This document shows, piece by piece, positions 4,643 to 51,145 of a stretch of DNA of 64,000 bases. Position numbers and translations under genes: made by a program. The DNA lies in assembly GCA_016432485.1 (NCBI GenBank), contig CP066691.1, forward strand, positions 77,466-141,465. The letters are read 5' to 3'. Within the stretch, counting starts at the first letter, position 1; every line of letters starts with the position of its first letter. This stretch comes from Candidatus Niyogibacteria bacterium (GTDB lineage Bacteria > Patescibacteriota > Minisyncoccia > HO2-45-28). The notes under the pieces were generated by a model that ran no database searches, was not told where the DNA came from, and saw only the letters and a list, made by a program, of their open reading frames with translations.

Positions 4643-6288
4643 AGTTTATAAAAAAAATAGAGATTCATTCTTTTAGGTCATGTGAAAATATGCACATTGA
4701 AAATTGTGAAAATTTTAATGTTTTTTTGGGTCTCAACAATTCTGGCAAATCAAATATTCTACGTGCTTTAAATTTATTTTTTAACGGAGAAATTGAGCCG
4801 GGTTTCAAATTTCTTTTGGAAAGAGATGGTAATTTCCCTCCCAAGAAACGTAAAAAGAAAGAAGTTGAAATTAGTATTACTTTTGATACAAGAGAATTAA
4901 AAAAATTACCCCAGTTTAAAAAGGCTGTTGGAAACATTGTTGATGATTATGTAATTACAAAAGTATGGGGTTACCAAGGTTTTTCTGAGGGCCTAATTGT
5001 TGCTAAAGGAAAAGACCAGCTTGATAAGGCCCAAAACCTTCTAAAATTTATAAGATTTCGATATTTAGTTGCTCATCGAGACCCTGCAAAAATCATTATA
5101 GAATCAGAAAAGCGTATACGAAAGGAACTACTTAGAAGGTTTAATTCACGTATTAAAAAGTCGCAAATTTCTGGAGGACAAAATTCCATTACCGAGGTTT
5201 TAAAAATTCTCGAAGATGCTTCAAAGTCATTAATTGACCCAATCGCACTACCCGTTAAAAGCTTATCACCGGAAGTTAAAGACCTTATCCTTTTAACACC
5301 TAAAACATTTCAAGATCTAGTTATTTCCTTGGGATACGCCGTTCAATTAAAAAATGAAAAAATGATTTCCGAAGAATTACAGGGGTCAGGCTTCCAAAGC
5401 CATTTAATGTTTAGAGTTTTGTACTTTGCGGATACGGCGTATAGTTTAGATTTTGGTTGGAAAGGTATAACAATTTGGGCTATCGAAGAACCGGAATCTT
5501 TTCTCCATAAAAATTTAGAGATAGAATTAGGGAAATTTTTTAATGAAATTTCTGAAAAATTTCGTATACAAATTTTTTGCACGACACATAGTGATGTTTT
5601 CCCTCAATATGCAAAAATGTCTTATTTAGCAAAATTTGATGATCTAAAATACTCTCAACTACAATACGATGTATCAAAAAAAATTATTCATGAGTCCTCA
5701 AAATTGGGTATTTCTTCGTTTGTTCATACACTACATTTTCAACAGGGAGTGCCACTTGTTTTAGTAGAGGGTAAAACTGACAAGAAAGTTGTGAATAAAA
5801 CCTTAGAACTTTTAGGTGATGCTGAATTTTTCAGTATTTTTGATAATTTTGATTTGAATCTAGACTCTGGTGGTGTTTCTCAATTATTAAAATATTTACA
5901 AAACAACAAGTTAGTTATTGATAGTAGACAAAAACCCTTTTATATTATTTTAGATTGGAATGAAGAGAATAAAACAGTTAATCAATTTAAAAAGATTAGT
6001 AAAAATATTTTTCCATATAAGTTTGACGAGTCAAAATGTAATCCAAATCTTGACAATAGTTTTAGTGGTATAGAAAGATATTTAACAACAGACTTTATTA
6101 AGAATCCTGCAACAGAAAAGACATTTTCGTATCAAACTGATTCTGTAAATTCTTCTATTTTGTCAATGAAAAAGAGAGTATTGGACGATAATAAAGTTTT
6201 TTTAGCTGATTATTTTGTGAAAAATGCTAGTAAATTGGATTTAAAATTTTTAGAACCAGAAATTAAGAAAGCTTTACACTTAAGTTAA
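4639..6288 (+). CDS. OLD-family ATP-dependent endonuclease-like protein (N-terminal ABC-type ATPase, C-terminal Toprim-like domain)
   Basis: Walker A GLNNSGKSNILRAL, Walker B/D-loop ITIWAIEEPESFLH, H-loop CTTHSD, and a C-terminal PLVLVEGKTDKKVV Toprim-like EGxxD motif. Its ATG overlaps the mod stop (ATATGA). Very AT-rich. Confidence 0.6.
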   Translation: MKFIKKIEIHSFRSCENMHIENCENFNVFLGLNNSGKSNILRALNLFFNGEIEPGFKFLLERDGNFPPKKRKKKEVEISITFDTRELKKLPQFKKAVGNIVDDYVITKVWGYQGFSEGLIVAKGKDQLDKAQNLLKFIRFRYLVAHRDPAKIIIESEKRIRKELLRRFNSRIKKSQISGGQNSITEVLKILEDASKSLIDPIALPVKSLSPEVKDLILLTPKTFQDLVISLGYAVQLKNEKMISEELQGSGFQSHLMFRVLYFADTAYSLDFGWKGITIWAIEEPESFLHKNLEIELGKFFNEISEKFRIQIFCTTHSDVFPQYAKMSYLAKFDDLKYSQLQYDVSKKIIHESSKLGISSFVHTLHFQQGVPLVLVEGKTDKKVVNKTLELLGDAEFFSIFDNFDLNLDSGGVSQLLKYLQNNKLVIDSRQKPFYIILDWNEENKTVNQFKKISKNIFPYKFDESKCNPNLDNSFSGIERYLTTDFIKNPATEKTFSYQTDSVNSSILSMKKRVLDDNKVFLADYFVKNASKLDLKFLEPEIKKALHLS

Positions 6289-6295
6289 AAAGTTT

Positions 6296-8989
6296 ATGGC
6301 ACTACATAAAGACTTTCCAAAAAACCCATACGCGATACTTGACCCGAATATTCGGTGGTTTCCTGCTGACGAAGATTTGCGGGAAAAAGGAGCTATTCAA
6401 AAACTTTTACCTCCTCTTGTCGCGGGTTTGCGGGAAAAAGTAAAAGAATGGCGAGATAAAAATTACGAGGGGGCAAGTAATACTTCTAAATCACTTTTGA
6501 ACTGGTGGTTCAAGGAGGAACATATTTTATATGACCAACACGGAGTATCTTCTCATTTCAAATACTATTTCGCGCAAAGAGAAGCGCTGGAAACAGTCGT
6601 ATGGCTTTATGAGGTGGCGAAAGTAAAAGATAAATACGACCTCATTCGTTACAACTCTACCGGCGTATTAAGTCCGCAAATGTTTACTGAAGAGTGGCTT
6701 CGCTTTGTGATAAAAATGGCGACTGGTGCGGGTAAGACCAAAGTAATGAGTCTAGTTGTCGCATGGGCGTATTTTCATAAAAAGTATGAGGAAGGTTCAA
6801 ATTTGGCAAAGAACTTTCTTTTAATAACGCCGAATGTCATTGTTTTTGAAAGAATAAAGAATGATTTTGAAGGATTGAAGATATTTTTTAGCGATCCTGT
6901 TTTGCCGGATAACGGCTATCACGGACAAAACTGGCAGGATGATTTTCAGATGACTCTGCATTTACAGGATGATTTGCGCAATGTTTCTGACACTGGAAAT
7001 ATATTTTTGACTAACATCCACAGAGTTTTTGAGGGTGATGTGCGCGAAGCGAGTGCAGAAGATGAGGACACTTCTCGATACTTCTTAGGCGATAAACCAG
7101 TCACAAAAACAAGCGACTCTACTGTGGATTTGGGGATGATAGTAAGAGATATCGACGAGCTTATTGTAATCAATGATGAAGCTCACCATTTGCACGATGA
7201 TAAATCAGCTTGGGTTAAATCAATTACCGACATAGACAATCGGCTTAAACAGAAAGGCGCGGGGCTATCTTTACAGCTTGACTTTACGGCTACACCAAAA
7301 AAGAACGATGGCTCCATTTTTGTGCAAACAATTTCCGACTATCCGCTTGTTGAGGCAATTCACCAAAGAGTTGTTAAAAATCCGGTTGTGCCGGACGCGG
7401 CAAGCCGAGGAAAACTGAAAGAAAATCAAAACACACTATTTAGCGAGAGATACCGAGATTATATAAATCTTGGTATTGAAGAATGGAAAAAAACATACGA
7501 AGTATTAAAACCGATGGGTAAAAAATCCATTCTTTTTATTATGACAGACGATACAAGGAATTGTGATGAGGTGGCGGAGTATATTGAAACAAGTTTTAAA
7601 GAGTTGAAAGGGGCAGTTTTGACTATACACACAAACAAGAGCGGAGAAATTTCTGAAAGTGTGTCCGGTAAAAGTAAAGAGGAATTGGATGTGCTTCGCA
7701 AACAAGCGAATGAAATTGATAGTTGGGAAAGCCCGTTCAAAGTAATTATTTCCGTAATGATGTTGAAAGAGGGTTGGGATGTAAAAAATGTAACGACAAT
7801 CGTCGGGCTACGACCTTTCGCAGCCGATTCAAAAATTCTGCCCGAACAAACTCTCGGACGAGGACTCCGTAGGATGTTTTTTGGCAGAGATGATGTTGAG
7901 GAATATGTGAGTGTTGTCGGAACTCCCGCTTTTATGGACTTTGTTGAATCAATCAAGGGCGAGGGCGTTATTCTTGAAAAGAAAGCGATGGGAACGGGAG
8001 CCAAGCCGATAGCTCCGATGGTTATTGAGGTTGATAAGGATAATCCGAAAAAGGACATTGAGAAGCTTGATATTGAGATTCCGGTGATGTCCCCTAGAAT
8101 TCAGAGGGAGTATAAAAACCTAGCCGAGCTGGATGTTTCCAAATTTGGGAATAAAAAGGTCAAAGTAAAAACATTCTCCGAAGAAGAAAAACGAGAAATC
8201 GTGTTTAAGGATGTTGTTGATGAAAAAATCCATCACACAACGATACTTTCTGGCGACATTGAACCTGATTATCAAAGCGTTATCGGATTTTTTGCGCAGG
8301 CAATAATGCGAGAACTACGGCTTTTTGGTTGCTACGATATTTTATTCGGCAAGGTAAGAGAGTTTGTGCAAAATAATATGTTTGACAGTCCCGTGAATTT
8401 ATCAGACCTCAATACTCTGCGAAATTTATCCGAGGTGGAGTATATACGGCTTATAAAAGATTCTTTCAAGAAAGCCATTAACGATCTTACAGTCGAAGAC
8501 AAAGGAGACACAGAGATAAAGAACTACATCAAAATTAGCGAAGCACGTCCTTTTGTCGTTAATGATAAATCGTATTTAATACCCAAAAAGTCTGTTTTCA
8601 ATAAGATTGTTGGCGATAGCGATTTTGAGCTAGTATTTTCTGATTTTCTCGAAAATTGTGATGATGCGATTTCTTTCGCAAAGAATTTTCAAAATAAAGA
8701 AGCGAGCGCGCTTAGAATTGAGTATAAAAATTCGGAAGGATTTATTGCTACCTACTACCCCGATTTCTTTGTTAAGAAAGATGAAAAAACGGTTTATATT
8801 ATTGAAACGAAAGGACGAGAAGAAGATGACGACAAGCTAAAATTTGAAAGACTGCAAAAGTGGTGTGAGGATGTAAATGATCGACAAAATCGGGTCGTCT
8901 ATAAAGCACTTTATATCAAACAAGAAGAATGGAAAAAAGATAAATTCAAGAATTTTGATGAGGTTGTTAGGGTGTTTGATTTAAAATAA
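6296..8989 (+). CDS. res: Type III restriction enzyme Res subunit (SF2 DEAH helicase fused to a C-terminal PD-(D/E)XK nuclease)
   Basis: Walker A MATGAGKTKV, DEAH box VINDEAHHL, motif VI QTLGRGLRR, and a C-terminal nuclease motif YYPDFFVKKDEKTVYIIETKGRE. Confidence 0.85.
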   Translation: MALHKDFPKNPYAILDPNIRWFPADEDLREKGAIQKLLPPLVAGLREKVKEWRDKNYEGASNTSKSLLNWWFKEEHILYDQHGVSSHFKYYFAQREALETVVWLYEVAKVKDKYDLIRYNSTGVLSPQMFTEEWLRFVIKMATGAGKTKVMSLVVAWAYFHKKYEEGSNLAKNFLLITPNVIVFERIKNDFEGLKIFFSDPVLPDNGYHGQNWQDDFQMTLHLQDDLRNVSDTGNIFLTNIHRVFEGDVREASAEDEDTSRYFLGDKPVTKTSDSTVDLGMIVRDIDELIVINDEAHHLHDDKSAWVKSITDIDNRLKQKGAGLSLQLDFTATPKKNDGSIFVQTISDYPLVEAIHQRVVKNPVVPDAASRGKLKENQNTLFSERYRDYINLGIEEWKKTYEVLKPMGKKSILFIMTDDTRNCDEVAEYIETSFKELKGAVLTIHTNKSGEISESVSGKSKEELDVLRKQANEIDSWESPFKVIISVMMLKEGWDVKNVTTIVGLRPFAADSKILPEQTLGRGLRRMFFGRDDVEEYVSVVGTPAFMDFVESIKGEGVILEKKAMGTGAKPIAPMVIEVDKDNPKKDIEKLDIEIPVMSPRIQREYKNLAELDVSKFGNKKVKVKTFSEEEKREIVFKDVVDEKIHHTTILSGDIEPDYQSVIGFFAQAIMRELRLFGCYDILFGKVREFVQNNMFDSPVNLSDLNTLRNLSEVEYIRLIKDSFKKAINDLTVEDKGDTEIKNYIKISEARPFVVNDKSYLIPKKSVFNKIVGDSDFELVFSDFLENCDDAISFAKNFQNKEASALRIEYKNSEGFIATYYPDFFVKKDEKTVYIIETKGREEDDDKLKFERLQKWCEDVNDRQNRVVYKALYIKQEEWKKDKFKNFDEVVRVFDLK

Positions 8990-43744: not shown

Positions 43745-43880
43745 AAAACTAAACACCGAGTGTCTAGTAAAAATTGATAAAAAATAAAACCCCGCTTTAT
43801 AAAATACTCTTATCCTTGACGTCAACCCCATAAGCAAAGCAGAATTTAACTAAAGAACCTTGTTTTATGGGGGCTTCGAA

Positions 43881-44492
43881 ATGCTGCGAATAGCTATTTT
43901 GGGAGCGACCGGCGTCGGTAAGGACACCCTTTGCCGTCTGCTTGCCAACGATCTGGCGCGATATTCTCTCGCTCGGAAAAAGCTGGTTAAAATCCGAGAA
44001 ATTCAGGAGTACTCGGTTTTGTGGACGGATAAAACCGGCGGAACAAAAGAATTTTTTGAACAATTTTGGATTTATCAGATGCAAAGGGAATGGGACCATG
44101 ATTTTGACTCGCGCTCAAACGATGACTTTTGCGCGGTTATTTTACGAGCACCCGCTCCACTGGCATACTTTTTTGCTCTCGCTTTCGCCGATATTAAAGA
44201 CGAAAAGCATCGCGAGGCCCTTGCCGACCTCTACAAAGAGGCGTTGGGCGAACTTTTGAAATACGATCTGATATTTTTCCTTCCCATTGAATTTAATGTG
44301 CCAGAGGGAGACCGTTTGCGTAAAAAAGATTTCCGTTTTAATGTTAACGCGTCAATCAGGTCATTTCTTCCCCTGCATAAAATACCTTTTATTGAAATAC
44401 GCGGCACGGAAACTGAAAGAGCCAAAAAAGTTGCAAGAGCAGTTAAAGATATGTTTAAAGCCAAAGTCGCCCAAGAGACGCAAAAATCTTAA
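43881..44492 (+). CDS. P-loop NTPase, hypothetical
   Basis: MLRIAILGATGVGKDTL Walker A. Confidence 0.4.
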   Translation: MLRIAILGATGVGKDTLCRLLANDLARYSLARKKLVKIREIQEYSVLWTDKTGGTKEFFEQFWIYQMQREWDHDFDSRSNDDFCAVILRAPAPLAYFFALAFADIKDEKHREALADLYKEALGELLKYDLIFFLPIEFNVPEGDRLRKKDFRFNVNASIRSFLPLHKIPFIEIRGTETERAKKVARAVKDMFKAKVAQETQKS

Positions 44493-44494
44493 AA

Positions 44495-44520
44495 GTCCCG
44501 CTGTTGTCGGGACTTTTGTT
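44495..44520 (+). terminator. Rho-independent terminator (agtcccg-ctgttg-tcgggact + tttgtttt)
   Basis: Seen in sequence. The stem is related to the one at 42353. Confidence 0.5.
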
Positions 44521-44551
44521 TTGAGTGAAAAAATGTATAATAAATAATTAA

Positions 44552-44664
44552 GGGCGTATAGCTCAGTGGGTCAAAAGCGTTTAAATAGCTTTTGACGGGC
44601 GATTACAATAATTTAAATATAAATTTAGGTCGCCCAGGGAGAGCGCAGTCCTGACCCCAGTACC
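44552..44664 (+). other. tRNA-like 5' fragment (GGGCGTATAGCTCAGTGGGT…GGAGAGCGCAGTCCTGACCCCAGTACC) interrupted by two AT-rich hairpins; not a complete tRNA
   Basis: tRNA-like acceptor/D-arm sequence, but no complete cloverleaf can be folded. Its 3' end, CCCCAGTACC, is complementary to GGTACGGGG at 44781-44789. Confidence 0.35.
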
Positions 44665-44673
44665 AAAAAATTT

Positions 44674-44747
44674 GCGGCTATAGCTCAGTTGGTTAGAGCG
44701 CGTCACTGATAATGACGAGGTCCTTGGTTCGAGTCCAAGTAGCCGCA
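44674..44747 (+). tRNA. tRNA-Ile (anticodon GAT)
   Basis: GCGGCTA-TA-GCTC-AGTTGGTTA-GAGC-G-CGTCA-CTGATAA-TGACG-AGGTC-CTTGG-TTCGAGT-CCAAG-TAGCCGC-A. A perfect cloverleaf. Confidence 0.9.
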
Positions 44748-44780
44748 CTAAATGTAGAGCAAATTTTTGGTACGGGGCAA

Positions 44781-44820
44781 GTAATGACGAGGCCGGAGGT
44801 TCGATCCCTCCCATGCCCAC
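44781..44820 (+). other. tRNA 3'-half-like fragment with T-arm, acceptor 3' strand and encoded CCA (…TGACGAGGCC-GGAGG-TTCGATC-CCTCC-CATGCCC-A-CCA)
   Basis: The T-arm carries compensatory changes relative to tRNA-Ile. No matching 5' half lies adjacent. Acceptor pairing with 44552-44558 is partial. Confidence 0.35.
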
Positions 44821-44828
44821 CAGAATAG

Positions 44829-44911
44829 AACTCAAAGGGTTTTGAGAGACCGAATTGTGGGCGGCGCAAAGCGCCGCCCACCAAATGGCTCTCAAAAAGC
44901 CGTTGAGTTTT
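44829..44911 (+). other. Cluster of three nested hairpins, including the 11-bp GC stem gtgggcggcgc-aaa-gcgccgcccac, directly after the tRNA region
   Basis: ctcaaagggttttgagag / gtgggcggcgcaaagcgccgcccac / ctctcaaaaagccgttgag, read directly. Confidence 0.5.
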
Positions 44912-44949
44912 ATCATGGTGTATTTATACGACCAAGCTCGAACCTATTT

Positions 44950-45420
44950 TAGCAGAAATTTCTGACACTGACGAACGCCCCGCCGCCCGCCTCCGCTAAC
45001 GCTCCGGCGGCAACCTCGCAGAAAAATATCCTCCGCAATTCTTTTTTTGCGCGCGCCCGATTTTTTCCTAAACAAGGAAGAGGATATTTTCTGCTCGGTT
45101 CCGCCCTCCAAGTATTTGGGCGGAGCGGCGGGGCTTCCATTCGCTTGGACGGCGCGGAATTCCCCCCTTGAACCCCCCTTCCGCCGCGCCCGAGCCGAAG
45201 CGAAGCCCCGTCGCCTGCTCTTTTAAGAGCAGAAGCCAGCAAAAAAGTTTTCTTCACCTTTTAGAAGAAAAAATTTATGGCGCGCGAAAATCAAAAATTG
45301 AGAAGAAAACTTTTTTGCTGGCTGGCGAGCGTCAGCGAGCGGCGGCGGGGCGAAGCGTCAGGCGTTCCGTTCAAAATAGGTTCGGATTATTTTCAGAGTA
45401 CTCCACAAGACTCCAAAATT
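44950..45420. repeat. GC-rich block containing several degenerate copies of the CCGCC…GGCGG palindromic element family
   Basis: For example, ccccgccgcccgcctccgctaacgctccggcgg (44988-45010) is approximately the reverse complement of the 36402 copy. ggagcggcggggc is repeated at 45122 and 45333. The ORFs predicted here (44949..45257, 45168..45437) look spurious. Confidence 0.5.
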
Positions 45421-47460: not shown

Positions 47461-47760
47461 CTAACTCATATGTTTTGAGACGAGTTTGGTCATCTCAAAC
47501 ATGTTGACTTCTCCTTTGCCGTCAAATAGCGGCCGGAGTTTGTCGTCGGCTTTGATGTTTCTTTTATTCTGGGGATTTTGCAGGTCGTGCTTTTTTATGT
47601 ACTCCCAGATTTTCTTAACGACCTCTCCTCTTGACATTGGGCCTTTACCGACAACGGCCTCGAGTTCCGAGGAAAGATTTAACGGCTTTAGTAAAGCCGG
47701 ATTTGCTTTTCTTACCATAGACTTTTGGATTAGATTAGTTATTAACATAATTCGACGCAC
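47461..47760 (-). CDS. SWIB/MDM2-domain protein
   Basis: …GKGPMSRGEVVKKIWEYIKKHDLQNPQNKRNIKADDKLRPLF…. Confidence 0.65.
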   Translation of the reverse strand: MRRIMLITNLIQKSMVRKANPALLKPLNLSSELEAVVGKGPMSRGEVVKKIWEYIKKHDLQNPQNKRNIKADDKLRPLFDGKGEVNMFEMTKLVSKHMS

Positions 47761-48140: not shown

Positions 48141-49122
48141 GGTATTATGGTCTAATATCTTTTCAAATATTTAGCCATGCACCACTGGGCAAGCAGTTTT
48201 CCTGCACCCTAGCGGTTTTCGTAGGTTCGGGCTTTTTTGCCTCGAGCCCTGATTTCTTCGCGTATTTTGATAATTTTCTTAAATCCTTTGTCCGTTAAAT
48301 GCTCTTTCTGTTTTACTTTCAAAACAATTGTTTTGAATCTTTTGTAGACCTCCGCCTTTTTTGCCTGTAAAGGACATTTATCAAGAAACGGAAAAAGAAA
48401 TTCTGTTAAATCCTTGTTGTTTGTAATTTTATATTTTACATGCGGATACCATCCATACCTTTCGTATGAAAGATCATAAATTCGTCCGCACCCAATTGTG
48501 ATTAAGATTCGTTCCAATATTTCTCTGTCATCGGCCCGAACTTCTATTTCAAACTCCGGCCTTATTTCAAGGCCGCGTTTAAGAGTTTTGTGTCTGCCAA
48601 TGCTTACTGAAAACGATCCCTCACCGTCAATAAAACCCGCAACATAGTTAGGATCAAGTTTTTTCCTACGAATTCGTTCCTTCCCAAACGGCGCTTTTAA
48701 TAAGCAGTTTTTGTGGTCGTCATTTTCAGACGACTTTCGTTTGGTACTACGAACTTTGCTGACTTCTTGCGTTGTTTTTGGACGATTGCTCGTTTTCATA
48801 CCTCGAGGTTATTATACCACGAGGACAACGCAAGATCTCCCACGGTAACCCATATATCTGTGTGTATCTATCTCGATGCCACTACACGCGTTATGCATTT
48901 TTTGCGGCGGGATTCTTCCTGTACTCGAGGAATCTCCCGCATAACGCGCCACAAACTGGCATTCAAGCTAAATACTGCTAATTTCACCCTTCGCCACGGC
49001 TCCTCGCGGAGACGGGCTGTGATTTTGCTTCGTTTCTACCGCAAAGAAACGGCTGGACTTCCGAGCGCATAAAACGTTATGTGCTTCGGTCACCAGCTAG
49101 ATACACGGATCGCATGGCGACC
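48141..49122 (-). mobile_element. ~1 kb intron in 16S (E. coli position ~1390-1400) encoding a LAGLIDADG homing endonuclease; probable group I intron
   Basis: The conserved GTACAC|ACCGCCCGTC block is split by ~980 nt containing a sense-strand ORF. Confidence 0.75.
48209..48799 (-). CDS. LAGLIDADG homing endonuclease (intron-encoded)
   Basis: YVAGFIDGEGSF motif. Same strand as the rRNA. Confidence 0.8.
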   Translation of the reverse strand: MKTSNRPKTTQEVSKVRSTKRKSSENDDHKNCLLKAPFGKERIRRKKLDPNYVAGFIDGEGSFSVSIGRHKTLKRGLEIRPEFEIEVRADDREILERILITIGCGRIYDLSYERYGWYPHVKYKITNNKDLTEFLFPFLDKCPLQAKKAEVYKRFKTIVLKVKQKEHLTDKGFKKIIKIREEIRARGKKARTYENR

Positions 49123-49630
49123 CGAGTACAAGACTCGAGAACGTATTCACCGCGGCGTTCTGATCCGCGATTACTAGCGATTCCGGCTTCACGAGGTCAG
49201 GTTGCAGACCTCGATCCGAATTGGGGCCGGCTTTGATGGGATTAGCTCCGCCTTACGGCTTGGCGACCCTTTGAACCGGCCATTGTAGCACGTGTGTAGC
49301 CCAGGGCATCAGAGGGCCATGCTGACTTGGCGTCATCCCCACCTTCCTCCCCGCCCTCTAAGCTCTACTTTAAATCCTCTTTACAAACTTATTGTGTTGA
49401 AGATTTACAACGACCGACGCGGTCATTGTTAAAGCATAGAGGGCGGGGCAGTTTCGCCTGACATATATAACAGGCAATGGGGGTTGCGCTCGTTACCCCA
49501 CTGAAGGGAACAACTCAAGCCACGAGCTGACGACAGCCATGCAGCGCCTGTCCAGCCGTCCTTGTGAGAAAACCTGCCTTTCGGCAAATTGTCGTCTGGA
49601 TTTCAAGCCCTGGTGAGGTTCTTCGCTTAC

Positions 49631-49665
<35 letters not shown>

Positions 49666-49676
49666 AGTCCCCGTCT

Positions 49677-49718
<42 letters not shown>

Positions 49719-49813
49719 GAGGCTTAACGCGTTAGCTTCGACACTCAAAGGGTCGATACTTCGAATATCTAGCCTCCATCGTTTAGGGCGCGGAGTACAA
49801 GGGTATCTACATC

Positions 49814-50200
49814 ATTGTTACTTAAACCGAACTTATTAATCATCGGTTAAGGAGCGAACATTTCTGCCGCTCTCTCCGTGTTACCACGAAGATCGGACTA
49901 TATCATCCCGCCAACATCTATAAAGTTGTGGCGGGCTCGGCGTATAGTCTCTACGGGGTTACTGGAAACTTATACTTGTATTTAGGCAATATATATTTTT
50001 TAACTGCAAACCACAATTTTTTAATTATCGTATATTTGCCATAAACACACGTATAAGTTTCCAGAACTTCCCTCGGTATTTTCCGTTTTTTAAAAACGGA
50101 TTTCTACCGATATAGCCGAGTTTGCATTCCATTGTCGCCAATGGAAGGGACTAGCAGCCAACTTTAATTATATCAATAAAGTTGGATACCCATGCCAATC
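49814..50200 (-). mobile_element. ~390-nt ORF-less intervening sequence in 16S (E. coli position ~790-800); probable intron
   Basis: GGGTATCTAATCC…CGCTTTCG is interrupted. No ORF longer than 60 aa on the rRNA strand. Confidence 0.55.
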
Positions 50201-51042
50201 CTTTTCCATACCCGCGCTTTCGTGTTTCAGAGTCAGGAACGCGCCAGTAGACTGCCTTCGCCTTTGGTGTTCCCCTGGATATCAATGGATTTCACTCCTA
50301 CACCCAGAGTTCCGTCTACCTCTCGCGTCCTCCGAGTTCAATGGTATCCCCTGCATTTTCGCCGTTGGGCGGCGATATTTAACAAAAGACTCATTAAACC
50401 TCCTACACACCCTTTACGCCCAGTAAATCCGGATAACGCTTGGGCTCCTCGTATTACCGCGGCTGCTGGCACGAGGTTAGCAAGCCCTTATTCATGGGAT
50501 ACTGTCACTTGCGTTCATCTCCCATAAAAGCAGTTTACGTCCCGAAGGATTTCTTCCTGCACGCGGCGTCGCTCGATCAGGCTTTCGCCCATTGTCGAAT
50601 ATTCTCGACTGCTGCCACCCGTAGGTGTATGGCCCGTGTCGCAGTGCCATTGGTGGGGGGCGAGCTCTCACTCCCCCTAGCCGTCATAGCCTTGGTAGGC
50701 TTTTACCCTGCCAACAAGCTGATAGCCCGCAGACCTTTCCCAGAGCGTCTTACGACTTTACCCTCACGGGAACTATCGGGAATTAGCCCCGCTTTCGCGG
50801 GGTTATGCCCGTCTCTGGGGTAAGTATCTACGTATTACTACCCCGTCTGCCACTCGCCAACGCTTCGCGTTGGAAGCACGAAATCCTAAATCCGAAATAC
50901 GAAACAAACTCAAAATTACAATACTCAAATTCCAAATGTTTTTAGTTTAGAATTTCGAGTTTGGATATTGTTTCGGATTTCGATATTCGAATTTCGAATT
51001 TCCAGTGCGAAGCACTGGCTCGTACGACTTGCATGCCTTATC

Positions 51043-51145
<103 letters not shown>

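Follow-up and report, generated by a model that had tools for sequence, protein, structure and literature searches.

Layout of the locus

The locus described here occupies positions 44552–44822 (+) of a 64,000-nucleotide (nt) stretch of Candidatus Niyogibacteria DNA (contig CP066691.1, positions 77,466 to 141,465 of the forward strand), referred to below as the window, and consists of an intact transfer RNA (tRNA)-Ile(GAT) gene lying inside a second, interrupted tRNA-Ile-like gene. All coordinates are positions in this 64-kb window, on the + strand unless stated. The outer gene is cut between anticodon positions 35 and 36 (between CTGA and TAA), and the insert at this break is 127 nt long and comprises a left arm, a complete tRNA-Ile(GAT), a right arm and a CAAG tail. 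A second break, in the D loop of the outer gene, holds a 66-nt insert of two hairpins. An initial annotation of this DNA had reported an intact tRNA-Ile(GAT) bracketed by a tRNA 5'-like fragment and a tRNA 3' half ending in CCA, and these elements are borne out: the 5' piece (GGGCGTATAGCTCAGTGGG...) begins at 44552, the 3' piece (...GGAGGTTCGATCCCTCCCATGCCCACCA) ends at 44822, and each occurs once in the window. The discrete D-loop insert, the placing of the break exactly between positions 35 and 36 and the recurrence of the layout in many genomes go beyond that annotation. The features of the locus and its immediate surroundings are as follows.

43860–44492: upstream AAA_28 ATPase gene (Pfam AAA_28 on the open reading frame, ORF)
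44490–44518 (+): intrinsic-terminator-like hairpin and T run from a terminator scan, closing the AAA_28 gene and setting the 5' limit of the tRNA unit
44521–44548 (+): promoter-like site, TTGAGT, 16 nt, AATAAT (consensus scan, 9/12 matches, a consensus match only)
44535–44542 (+): extended -10 TGTATAAT, read from the sequence; the promoter-like site lies immediately 5' of the first outer base
44552–44569 (+): outer relic, first 5' segment: GGGCGTA (acceptor 5' strand, 44552–58), TA, GCTC (D-stem 5' strand, 44561–64) and D-loop AGTGG
44570–44635 (+): D-loop insert, 66 nt: hairpin 1 GTCAAAAGC/GCTTTTGAC (44570–96) and hairpin 2 GGGCGA...TCGCCC (44597–635)
44636–44654 (+): outer relic, second 5' segment: AGGGA, GAGC (D-stem 3' strand, 44641–44), G, degenerate CAGTC (anticodon-stem 5' strand, 44646–50) and CTGA (positions 32–35, 44651–54)
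44655–44673 (+): left arm of the flanking helix, CCCCAGTACCAAAAAATTT, doubling as the 5' leader of the inner tRNA (inverted repeat; family-wide covariation)
44674–44747 (+): inner intact tRNA-Ile(GAT), no CCA encoded (ARAGORN; Rfam RF00005, 75.7 bits)
44748–44781 (+): 3' trailer: unpaired CTAAATGTAGA, right arm GCAAATTTTTGGTACGGGG (44759–77) and CAAG tail (44778–81)
44782–44822 (+): outer relic, 3' half: TAA (positions 36–38), TGACG (anticodon-stem 3' strand), AGGCC, T arm GGAGG-TTCGATC-CCTCC (44795–811), CATGCCC (acceptor 3' strand, 44812–18), discriminator A and CCA (44820–22) (Rfam tRNA partial match, 26.1 bits)
44823–44916 (+): long hairpin of very high stability, then UUUUAU; probably the unit's terminator (fold -54.3 kcal/mol, z -10.3; terminator-like call at 44884–44904)

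The inner gene is intact and the outer gene is disrupted

The inner tRNA-Ile(GAT) (44674–44747/8) is the only tRNA that ARAGORN or Rfam calls here, scoring 75.7 bits against an RF00005 gathering score of 29, and it is nearest to those of Doudnabacteria and Saccharimonadales metagenome-assembled genomes. Neither of the two intact tRNAs of the window has an encoded CCA, which the outer relic does encode; across the related loci described below, CCA is encoded in the outer copy only in four and in the inner copy only in none.

The flanking pieces do not form complete cloverleafs, as had been proposed from the sequence, and the 3' piece alone reaches 26.1 bits on the tRNA model, under the gathering score. 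The acceptor strands (GGGCGTA/CATGCCC) do pair only partially, at 6/7 positions with one G-U pair and an A-C mismatch. The outer anticodon stem (CAGTC/TGACG) retains 2/5 pairs, one Watson-Crick and one G-U. The outer T stem (GGAGG/CCTCC) is paired at 5/5 positions and differs from the inner one (CTTGG/CCAAG), which agrees with the observation behind the earlier proposal of compensatory T-stem changes; however, descent from two tRNA-Ile alleles explains the difference better than compensation in place. The ARAGORN run suggested at that stage did not return three ordinary tRNAs, and its intron, low-threshold, mitochondrial and transfer-messenger RNA (tmRNA) modes gave nothing beyond the inner tRNA over 44500–44950. 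The tmRNA model that was also suggested scores far below threshold at the locus (tmRNA_permuted, 11.8 bits versus 47); ARAGORN finds no tmRNA, and position 3:70 is G-C.

Removal of the inserts in silico does not restore a credible tRNA. Each of 355,320 products, combining one D-loop deletion with one anticodon deletion, was run through ARAGORN, and 0/355,320 are still called when the score threshold is raised to 114% of its default; the window's two real tRNAs are still called at 120%. Many weak calls are obtained among these products because the acceptor, D and T arms are good; the best of them are artefacts, the top one being a "tRNA-Lys" with a 20-nt variable region, and no credible tRNA emerges because the outer anticodon stem pairs at only 2/5 positions. 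With its inserts removed, the outer gene thus falls outside the canonical bacterial tRNA class, defined by four paired stems and a 7-nt anticodon loop.

No ribozyme was found by a permissive Rfam scan, and RF00028 gave no match in 44400–45000 even at E values up to 10; the same model detects the group I intron in the 16S ribosomal RNA (rRNA) gene of the window (54.5 bits) and two tRNA introns in related sequences, L028 and L160 (85 and 81 bits; handles beginning with L denote loci from other genomes). The group I boundary rule does not hold either, as the 5' exon ends in CTGA (A35) rather than U; the last base of the insert is G (CAAG), which is uninformative alone. Inspection of the junctions, made by eye and not with a motif program, revealed no bulge-helix-bulge, CTGA and CAAG-TAA forming at most 2/4 pairs with a single A on the 5' strand as the sole bulge. 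Three further candidates were discarded: a Plastid-ycf2 match in Rfam is the antisense strand of the tRNA, with no other family matching at the locus; a hammerhead-like reading of CUGA...CAAG lacks the pairing and core motifs by eye; and a reading of GGGCAAG at the insert end as the true 5' acceptor strand of a minihelix, taken from the Rfam alignment, was dropped because the pairing is not conserved in L131 and L183.

The flanking helix covaries and the D-loop insert is itself structured

An inverted-repeat search placed the arms on either side of the inner tRNA at 44656–44672 and 44761–44777 (17 nt, 88% complementary), and by eye the helix extends to ~19 base pairs (bp; arms 44655–73 and 44759–77) with one bulged A, so that the 9–10 bp helix of the initial annotation is real with its length understated. 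Neither arm has a second copy in the 64 kb, and 0/100 shuffles reach two matches. Alignment of 14 distinct members of the insert family to which the window belongs allowed a 12-bp distal helix to be scored, in which 93.4% of cells are paired and 6/12 pairs have changed on both sides; at one position seven sequences have U-A, six C-G and one A-U. The covariation score was reached by 0/500 shuffles and slid controls were 33–52% paired, indicating that complementarity of the arms is maintained. The helix is part of the inserted unit, since ordinary tRNA genes of the same loci have no pairing leader and trailer. Leader-trailer pairing as a general trait of tRNA genes in the candidate phyla radiation was considered and rejected (mean -12.3 kcal/mol for plain tRNAs versus -10.2 kcal/mol for permuted flanks), and many of the strongest outliers among the plain tRNAs proved to be additional nested cases.

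The D-loop insert folds at -24.6 kcal/mol (z -6.1) and has no second copy within the window. An insert of two hairpins with different stem sequences occupies the same D-loop position in L142, L131 and L122, a comparison made with single-sequence folds of four sequences only, one of which MAFFT misaligned. The first 5' segment of the outer relic likewise has a counterpart in these three loci, and relatives carry CGTCACTGA where the window has the second 5' segment. The stems of the second hairpin in this set (GGGCGA/TCGCCC and GGGCAT/ATGCCC) are tRNA-Ile acceptor alleles, and hairpin 2 is therefore probably an older nested tRNA that has collapsed. The tip of the putative terminator hairpin (44857–44883, GGGCGGC-GCAAAGC-GCCGCCC-ACCA) resembles an acceptor minihelix whose 7-bp stem is the tRNA-Ile acceptor allele of L151 and L217, with a discriminator A and CCA after the stem, and it may possibly be another helix-flanked tRNA collapsed to its acceptor stem.

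The nested layout recurs in other genomes

A search of prokaryotic genomes, one for each species, with a degenerate pattern that fits both the inner tRNA and the 3' piece matched at least 120 loci; among the matches listed most are from Patescibacteria and 96 lie in tRNA-Ile(GAT) genes. Orphan matches with the nested layout occur in L040 (Saccharibacteria) and L047, the latter having outer exons identical to its inner tRNA and a D-loop insert as well, and L018 and L043 are further cases. Scanning of metagenome contigs with a pattern specific to the nested layout also gave at least 120 loci, and at least 83 of the 120 matches listed are true nested-type loci. The layout is shared, with homologous arms, by many contigs of Patescibacteria type. 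Among the matches listed, 68 loci share the layout of the window, an intact tRNA followed by an orphan 3' half, 21 have an orphan copy upstream of the intact tRNA and 37 are unrelated tandem repeats; these counts include five loci from the genome scan and the window itself, all of which match the nested pattern. Three matches in viral contigs are all unrelated coding repeats, and the family-specific pattern has no match there. The genes flanking the locus in the window are found beside no related locus.

Spliced alignment of each inner tRNA to its own flanks recovered clean outer "exons" in 42 loci at a score of at least 95. The large insert lies in the anticodon loop in 37 of the 42, a set biased by its retrieval, and in the D loop in some others; its positions within the anticodon loop include index 36 (15 loci), 35 (11), 32 (7) and 34 (3), and the break at 35/36 seen in the window is the largest class among its relatives. 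Termini of the large inserts are homologous within families. The family of the window reads CTGA, then the insert from CCCC(R)GYACYAAAA to TTTRGTRCGGGGCARG, then TAATGACG, with a 4-nt tail C-R-R-G kept throughout, and includes L183, L192, L207, L224, L142, L131, L133 and L206; a variant of it sits at 31/32. A second family has the termini CCCGCCTGCC...GGCGGGCAGG.

Nesting can be repeated. One genomic locus, seen in different populations as L156, L123, L213 and L195, carries two to four layers, in each of which the 5' and 3' acceptor strands match and the spacers are complementary to one another. L142 has three levels of nesting, and its middle layer is the orthologue of the window's outer gene. 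The layout also extends beyond tRNA-Ile to genes for tRNA-Phe (L095, L228 and L173), tRNA-Gly (L068), tRNA-Thr (L219 and L239) and tRNA-Ala (L040, L088, L151 and L031), and the inner tRNA is always the same isoacceptor as the gene that it interrupts. Outer copies often contain extra small hairpin inserts of 16–45 nt, from families that are common to several loci and occupy different positions in them, and L224 contains "solo" arms of the window type with no tRNA inside.

Up to five hairpin inserts of 20–37 nt are seen in copies whose exons are identical to the intact copy, namely the outer tRNA-Ile of L206, a tRNA-Phe copy in L192 (near 6202–6275) and a tRNA-Val in L052. One hairpin family, GCnTGCCCCGTAGCGAGCTnTGCTCTGCTryGGG, sits at position 28/29 in three loci, L183, L206 and L207, and a second time in L183, at 45.

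Outer copies decay and probably often descend from a different allele

Stem pairing was compared between outer and inner copies over 48 distinct loci. Acceptor stems retain 296/336 pairs (88%) in outer copies and 332/336 (99%) in inner ones, anticodon stems 220/240 (92%) and 240/240 (100%), and T stems 213/240 (89%) and 234/240 (97.5%); broken pairs amount to ~5% in the outer copies versus 0.8% in the inner. Small inserts fall inside stem strands in 18/38 cases, about the chance expectation. Single changes between outer and inner copies break a pair in 37 cases and give G-U in 16, a roughly unconstrained ratio, and we read these single stem changes as decay. Double stem differences are perfectly compensated in 22/24 cases, so inner and outer copies would often derive from two alleles that both worked; a cassette copied in, or replacement of one allele by another, would therefore fit better than duplication in place. 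In the single comparison of an empty with a filled site, L092's plain gene and L147's inner gene are orthologues.

Interrupted tRNA genes in one sample carry either an intact tRNA or a group I intron

An unbiased search was made for a tRNA 5' module followed, 90–900 nt downstream and outside called tRNAs, by an acceptor/T-arm module perfectly complementary to it. It returned 29 interrupted tRNAs, a small sample for tRNAs other than tRNA-Ile and one drawn from a retrieval enriched for nests. An intact tRNA lies inside 27/29, and the remaining 2/29 (L028 and L160) contain group I introns (RF00028, 85 and 81 bits); in this sample, therefore, interruptions either self-splice or carry a replacement gene. 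Both interrupted genes, at 1559–1875 of L028 and 1274–1968 of L160, are broken in the anticodon loop, and ARAGORN misses both of them; by eye, the intron of L028 is at 33/34 of a tRNA-Phe-like gene.

Loci with the orphan copy upstream have an ORF of ~85–95 amino acids directly 3' of the intact tRNA-Ile, which runs into a degenerate tRNA-Ile copy and uses the anticodon-loop TAA as its stop. The product is a GIY-YIG protein (PF01541, Pfam E = 2e-14), and GIY-YIG genes are the most recurrent neighbour, adjoining 9/54 related loci. Copies linked to them carry a 14-nt hairpin, CCCGCC..GGCGGG, in place of CGTCACTGA, with the compensated variants CTCGCC/GGCGAG and TTCGCC/GGCGAA. The arrangement is seen at 7815–8361 of L170 and also in L187, L174, L046, L200 and L001, the last codons (…GRxWLERARxGG) being encoded by the D arm of the degenerate copy. 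Partial tRNA-Ile copies stand in tandem upstream in L170, and in L001 the whole unit is repeated with a 302-nt period. Within the window, tblastn with four related GIY-YIG proteins gave nothing better than E = 0.4. The sole nuclease gene near the locus is a LAGLIDADG ORF at 48209–48799 (-) (PF00961, E = 3e-21), 3.4 kb away and ~200 nt past the 3' end of the 16S rRNA gene.

A model for the nested gene

It is fairly probable that the locus is one transcription unit, in which a working tRNA-Ile(GAU) gene is nested in a disrupted older copy of the same gene. The outer halves most likely represent a relic that is transcribed with the inner gene as its leader and trailer, and the locus is most likely one instance of a widespread and apparently undescribed process in which tRNA genes of Patescibacteria are invaded and replaced from inside. 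A promoter just 5' of 44552 would drive a precursor of ~270–360 nt ending at the 44823–44916 hairpin, in which the arms would pair into the ~19-bp helix with the inner tRNA at its tip. Ribonuclease P (RNase P) would then cut the 5' end, the 3' end would be completed by trimming and CCA addition and the helix may be cleaved by RNase III, and these steps would release only the working tRNA. The outer halves would be by-products, not expected to decode because their anticodon is split and their anticodon stem degenerate.

As to its origin, a helix-flanked tRNA cassette may have been copied into the resident gene, and the arrangement would have survived because the cassette replaces the essential gene that it destroys; a self-splicing group I intron would reach the same outcome via splicing. 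Repeated events would add layers, the old ones decaying or collapsing to bare hairpins. Complementarity of the helix might be kept up because insertion depends on it, or else because it stops the relic halves from mispairing with the working tRNA. The small GIY-YIG nucleases beside some related loci are candidate enzymes, none being encoded in the window. More tentatively, such cassettes may form a class of insertion, selfish or semi-selfish and so far undescribed, that occurs in Patescibacteria's essential RNA genes, in which a helix-flanked tRNA cassette copies itself into the loop-coding part of a gene for the same tRNA and its layers collapse to small hairpins. This cassette would need no splicing because it carries the replacement gene, and the conserved termini (CCC(C)...GGG(G) plus the 4-nt tail), together with the concentration in anticodon loops, would point to a dedicated structure- or sequence-specific enzyme or to an RNA-level step.

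Several observations weigh against this model. No target-site duplication, transposase or nuclease gene that could account for the insertion was found in the window. In some ten loci, L206 and L018 among them, the outer exons match the inner tRNA exactly or almost so even though as many as five inserts are present; this calls for very recent events, for concerted evolution or for constraint of some kind on those exons. The outer acceptor stems of L192 and L224 carry swapped alleles that preserve pairing, and the structural conservation of the D-loop hairpins and of the helix could mean that the outer shell has a role of its own. The frequencies given above are biased because most loci were fetched with a pattern that demands the nested layout, and the promoter, the terminator and the RNase steps are ones that we infer from the sequence.

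Alternative explanations

The outer shell, with its tRNA-like core, D-loop hairpins and long helix, might be a selected structured RNA that arose as a relic and was then co-opted, either as a scaffold for processing or stabilizing the inner pre-tRNA or as a mimic of tRNA whose CCA end is encoded. A tRNA-derived structured RNA was among the options of the initial annotation and keeps some force for the helix, which covaries. The retention of two D-loop hairpins across four loci with different stems, the intact outer T arm and encoded CCA beside two intact tRNAs that have none, and the pairing-preserving allele differences in outer acceptor stems are also in its favor. On the other hand, the outer stems are degraded overall and their single changes look unconstrained, the close relatives L018 and L043 differ by large inserts in the outer T arm, hairpin 2 is accounted for as a collapsed tRNA, and covariation of the arms is equally expected if they serve mobility or merely avoid misfolding; we regard co-option of this kind as unlikely. 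It is improbable, to a much greater degree, that the inserts are ordinary multi-copy miniature inverted-repeat transposable elements or repetitive extragenic palindromic-like elements that landed by chance in a redundant tRNA gene copy, with the nesting incidental. The arms do resemble terminal inverted repeats, members of small hairpin families such as CCTGCCTRCCGGYAGGCAGG are found at differing positions in differing loci and a "solo" arm hairpin without a tRNA exists in L224, but a target-site duplication is present at no junction, the 64 kb contain no second copy of an arm or of the D-loop hairpins, each small insert is unique within its locus, and the large insert always carries the isoacceptor of the gene that it interrupts.

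Splicing of the outer gene would make it a working intron-containing tRNA-Ile gene, with both inserts removed by protein machinery or by RNase P/Z and ligation and with two tRNA-Ile produced from the locus. The anatomy of a split or intron-containing tRNA with tRNA-Ile nested in it, as had been suggested, is indeed present; the break at 35/36 is the site of experimentally spliced group I introns in Patescibacteria (PMC13011429), in L018, L047, L194 and L206 the outer exons match the inner tRNA at 100% identity in spite of one to five inserts, and most inserts are self-contained hairpins. What speaks against the insert being an intron that is spliced out is that the outer anticodon stem pairs at 2/5 positions, the acceptor stem has an A-C mismatch, no pair of deletions gives a credible tRNA, neither a group I nor any other ribozyme model matches, the last base of the 5' exon is A instead of U and no bulge-helix-bulge motif can be drawn at the junctions. 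Moreover, outer copies decay, their inserts fall in stems at chance frequency and each ribozyme-free interruption comes with an intact copy, all of which makes a functional outer tRNA very improbable. Duplicated tRNA 3' ends are classic scars of attachment (att) sites, and the flanking pieces had been considered in this light, as what integrative elements left behind after recombining within the tRNA-Ile gene, duplicating a part of it and being lost later by deletion. A related locus, L004, has an orphan tRNA 3' half (~6860–6900) right after an ORF with a tyrosine-recombinase-like C-terminus by eye. In the window, by contrast, a matching 5' half with an acceptor strand complementary to the 3' piece lies upstream, and the 3' piece begins inside the anticodon (position 36) without the 5' strand of the anticodon stem. 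It lies only ~30 nt away from the intact gene, the spacers to either side are complementary, nests of three to four levels have matched acceptor strands in each layer, and the neighbours tested are AAA_28, NT5C and one ORF without a Pfam match, with no integrase among them. This option from the initial annotation is therefore extremely improbable. L004 itself resembles a conventional att-site scar and forms a contrast to the nested loci.

Relation to known systems

A tRNA gene nested in a copy of itself is not described in the full-text literature that we could search, a coverage that leaves out most subscription journals. The closest parallel is provided by group I introns inserted at 35/36 in the genes for tRNA-Asn and tRNA-Asp of Patescibacteria, which have been shown experimentally to splice (PMC13011429). 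The phylum, the kind of host gene and the anticodon-loop site (35/36 in the window) are the same, and in both cases an essential single-copy RNA gene receives an insertion and the cell stays viable. In contrast to those introns, the insert in the window has no ribozyme core, is only 127 nt long and follows a 5' exon ending in A rather than U, and viability would come from the intact replacement gene inside the insert instead of from splicing.

Phage T4 SegB is a free-standing GIY-YIG homing endonuclease in a tRNA gene cluster (PMC2330249; also PMC13096335), and the small GIY-YIG genes that adjoin tRNA-Ile genes flanked by partial or degenerate tRNA-Ile copies, at 9/54 related loci, are similar in kind. 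Copy-in triggered by such a nuclease would explain the repeated layers and the co-existing alleles. However, the window contains no GIY-YIG gene, the nested cassette still holds an intact target sequence, and self-nested tRNA genes are not reported for SegB.

Bacterial rRNA operons contain intervening sequences and processing stems that are substrates of RNase III. Here too, a long helix is formed from both sides of a mature RNA in one precursor and helix-shaped insertions are tolerated in a structural RNA gene; the differences are that the enclosed RNA is a tRNA, that the gene around it is a broken version of that tRNA's own gene and that the RNase III cut is predicted. The bulge-helix-bulge splicing endonuclease is not known from bacteria. 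Disrupted tRNA genes of archaea, with multiple non-canonical introns or in split and permuted form (PMC3218864, PMC4390854, PMC3293823), share with the locus short structured inserts in the D, anticodon and T loops, complementary sequences that hold halves together and mobile elements as a proposed cause. Unlike the window, where no such motif can be drawn, they are rescued by the bulge-helix-bulge splicing endonuclease and a ligase, and their inserts bring no second copy of the same tRNA.

If the model is correct, invasion of essential tRNA genes is routine in the smallest bacterial genomes, and invaders have, besides self-splicing, a further means of survival, namely to bring along a spare of whichever gene they break, which would be a new solution for selfish elements. 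For annotation, tRNA finders report the inner gene only and leave hundreds of nucleotides of relic tRNA, hairpins and stems unexplained or miscalled as pseudogenes or att sites. The layers would form a natural record of tRNA decay, including allele turnover and collapse to hairpins, and with them one could test whether the processing of tRNA is guided by long leader-trailer helices in organisms whose RNA-processing machinery is reduced. The GIY-YIG association and the 35/36 site held in common with group I introns suggest a common invasion route, which could bear on the origin of disrupted tRNA genes, those of archaea included.

Neighbouring features

A contig search for an independent assembly of the locus gave only short contigs from the same organism, assembled from short reads, which end near 45160, ~340 nt short of the structured spacer; the organism is present in sequencing runs SRR12113418–30. 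The 16S rRNA gene lies at 49012–51088 (-), is 2,077 nt long with its group I intron at 49874–50189 (54.5 bits), and is 73–82% identical to 16S segments of Patescibacteria; the organism is probably a divergent lineage of that phylum. The window holds no 23S gene, and tRNA-Ile and tRNA-Ala are unlinked from the 16S gene. The SWIB domain is uncommon in bacteria outside a few lineages, and a 99-amino-acid SWIB-domain protein (the Pfam family listed for an identical product) is encoded at 47461–47760 (-); it is the sole neighbour in the window with a homologue (56% identity) in another fetched locus, L016. Downstream of the probable terminator, 44917–45352 comprises ~440 nt with no convincing ORF and no Rfam family that is strongly structured (z -6.95). 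It contains nested inverted repeats at 45234–62/45295–323 (29 nt) and 45125–43/45196–214 and a further pair, CGCCCCGCCGCC/GGCGGCGGGGCG, 353 nt apart, and its GC-rich motifs resemble the insert termini of other loci.

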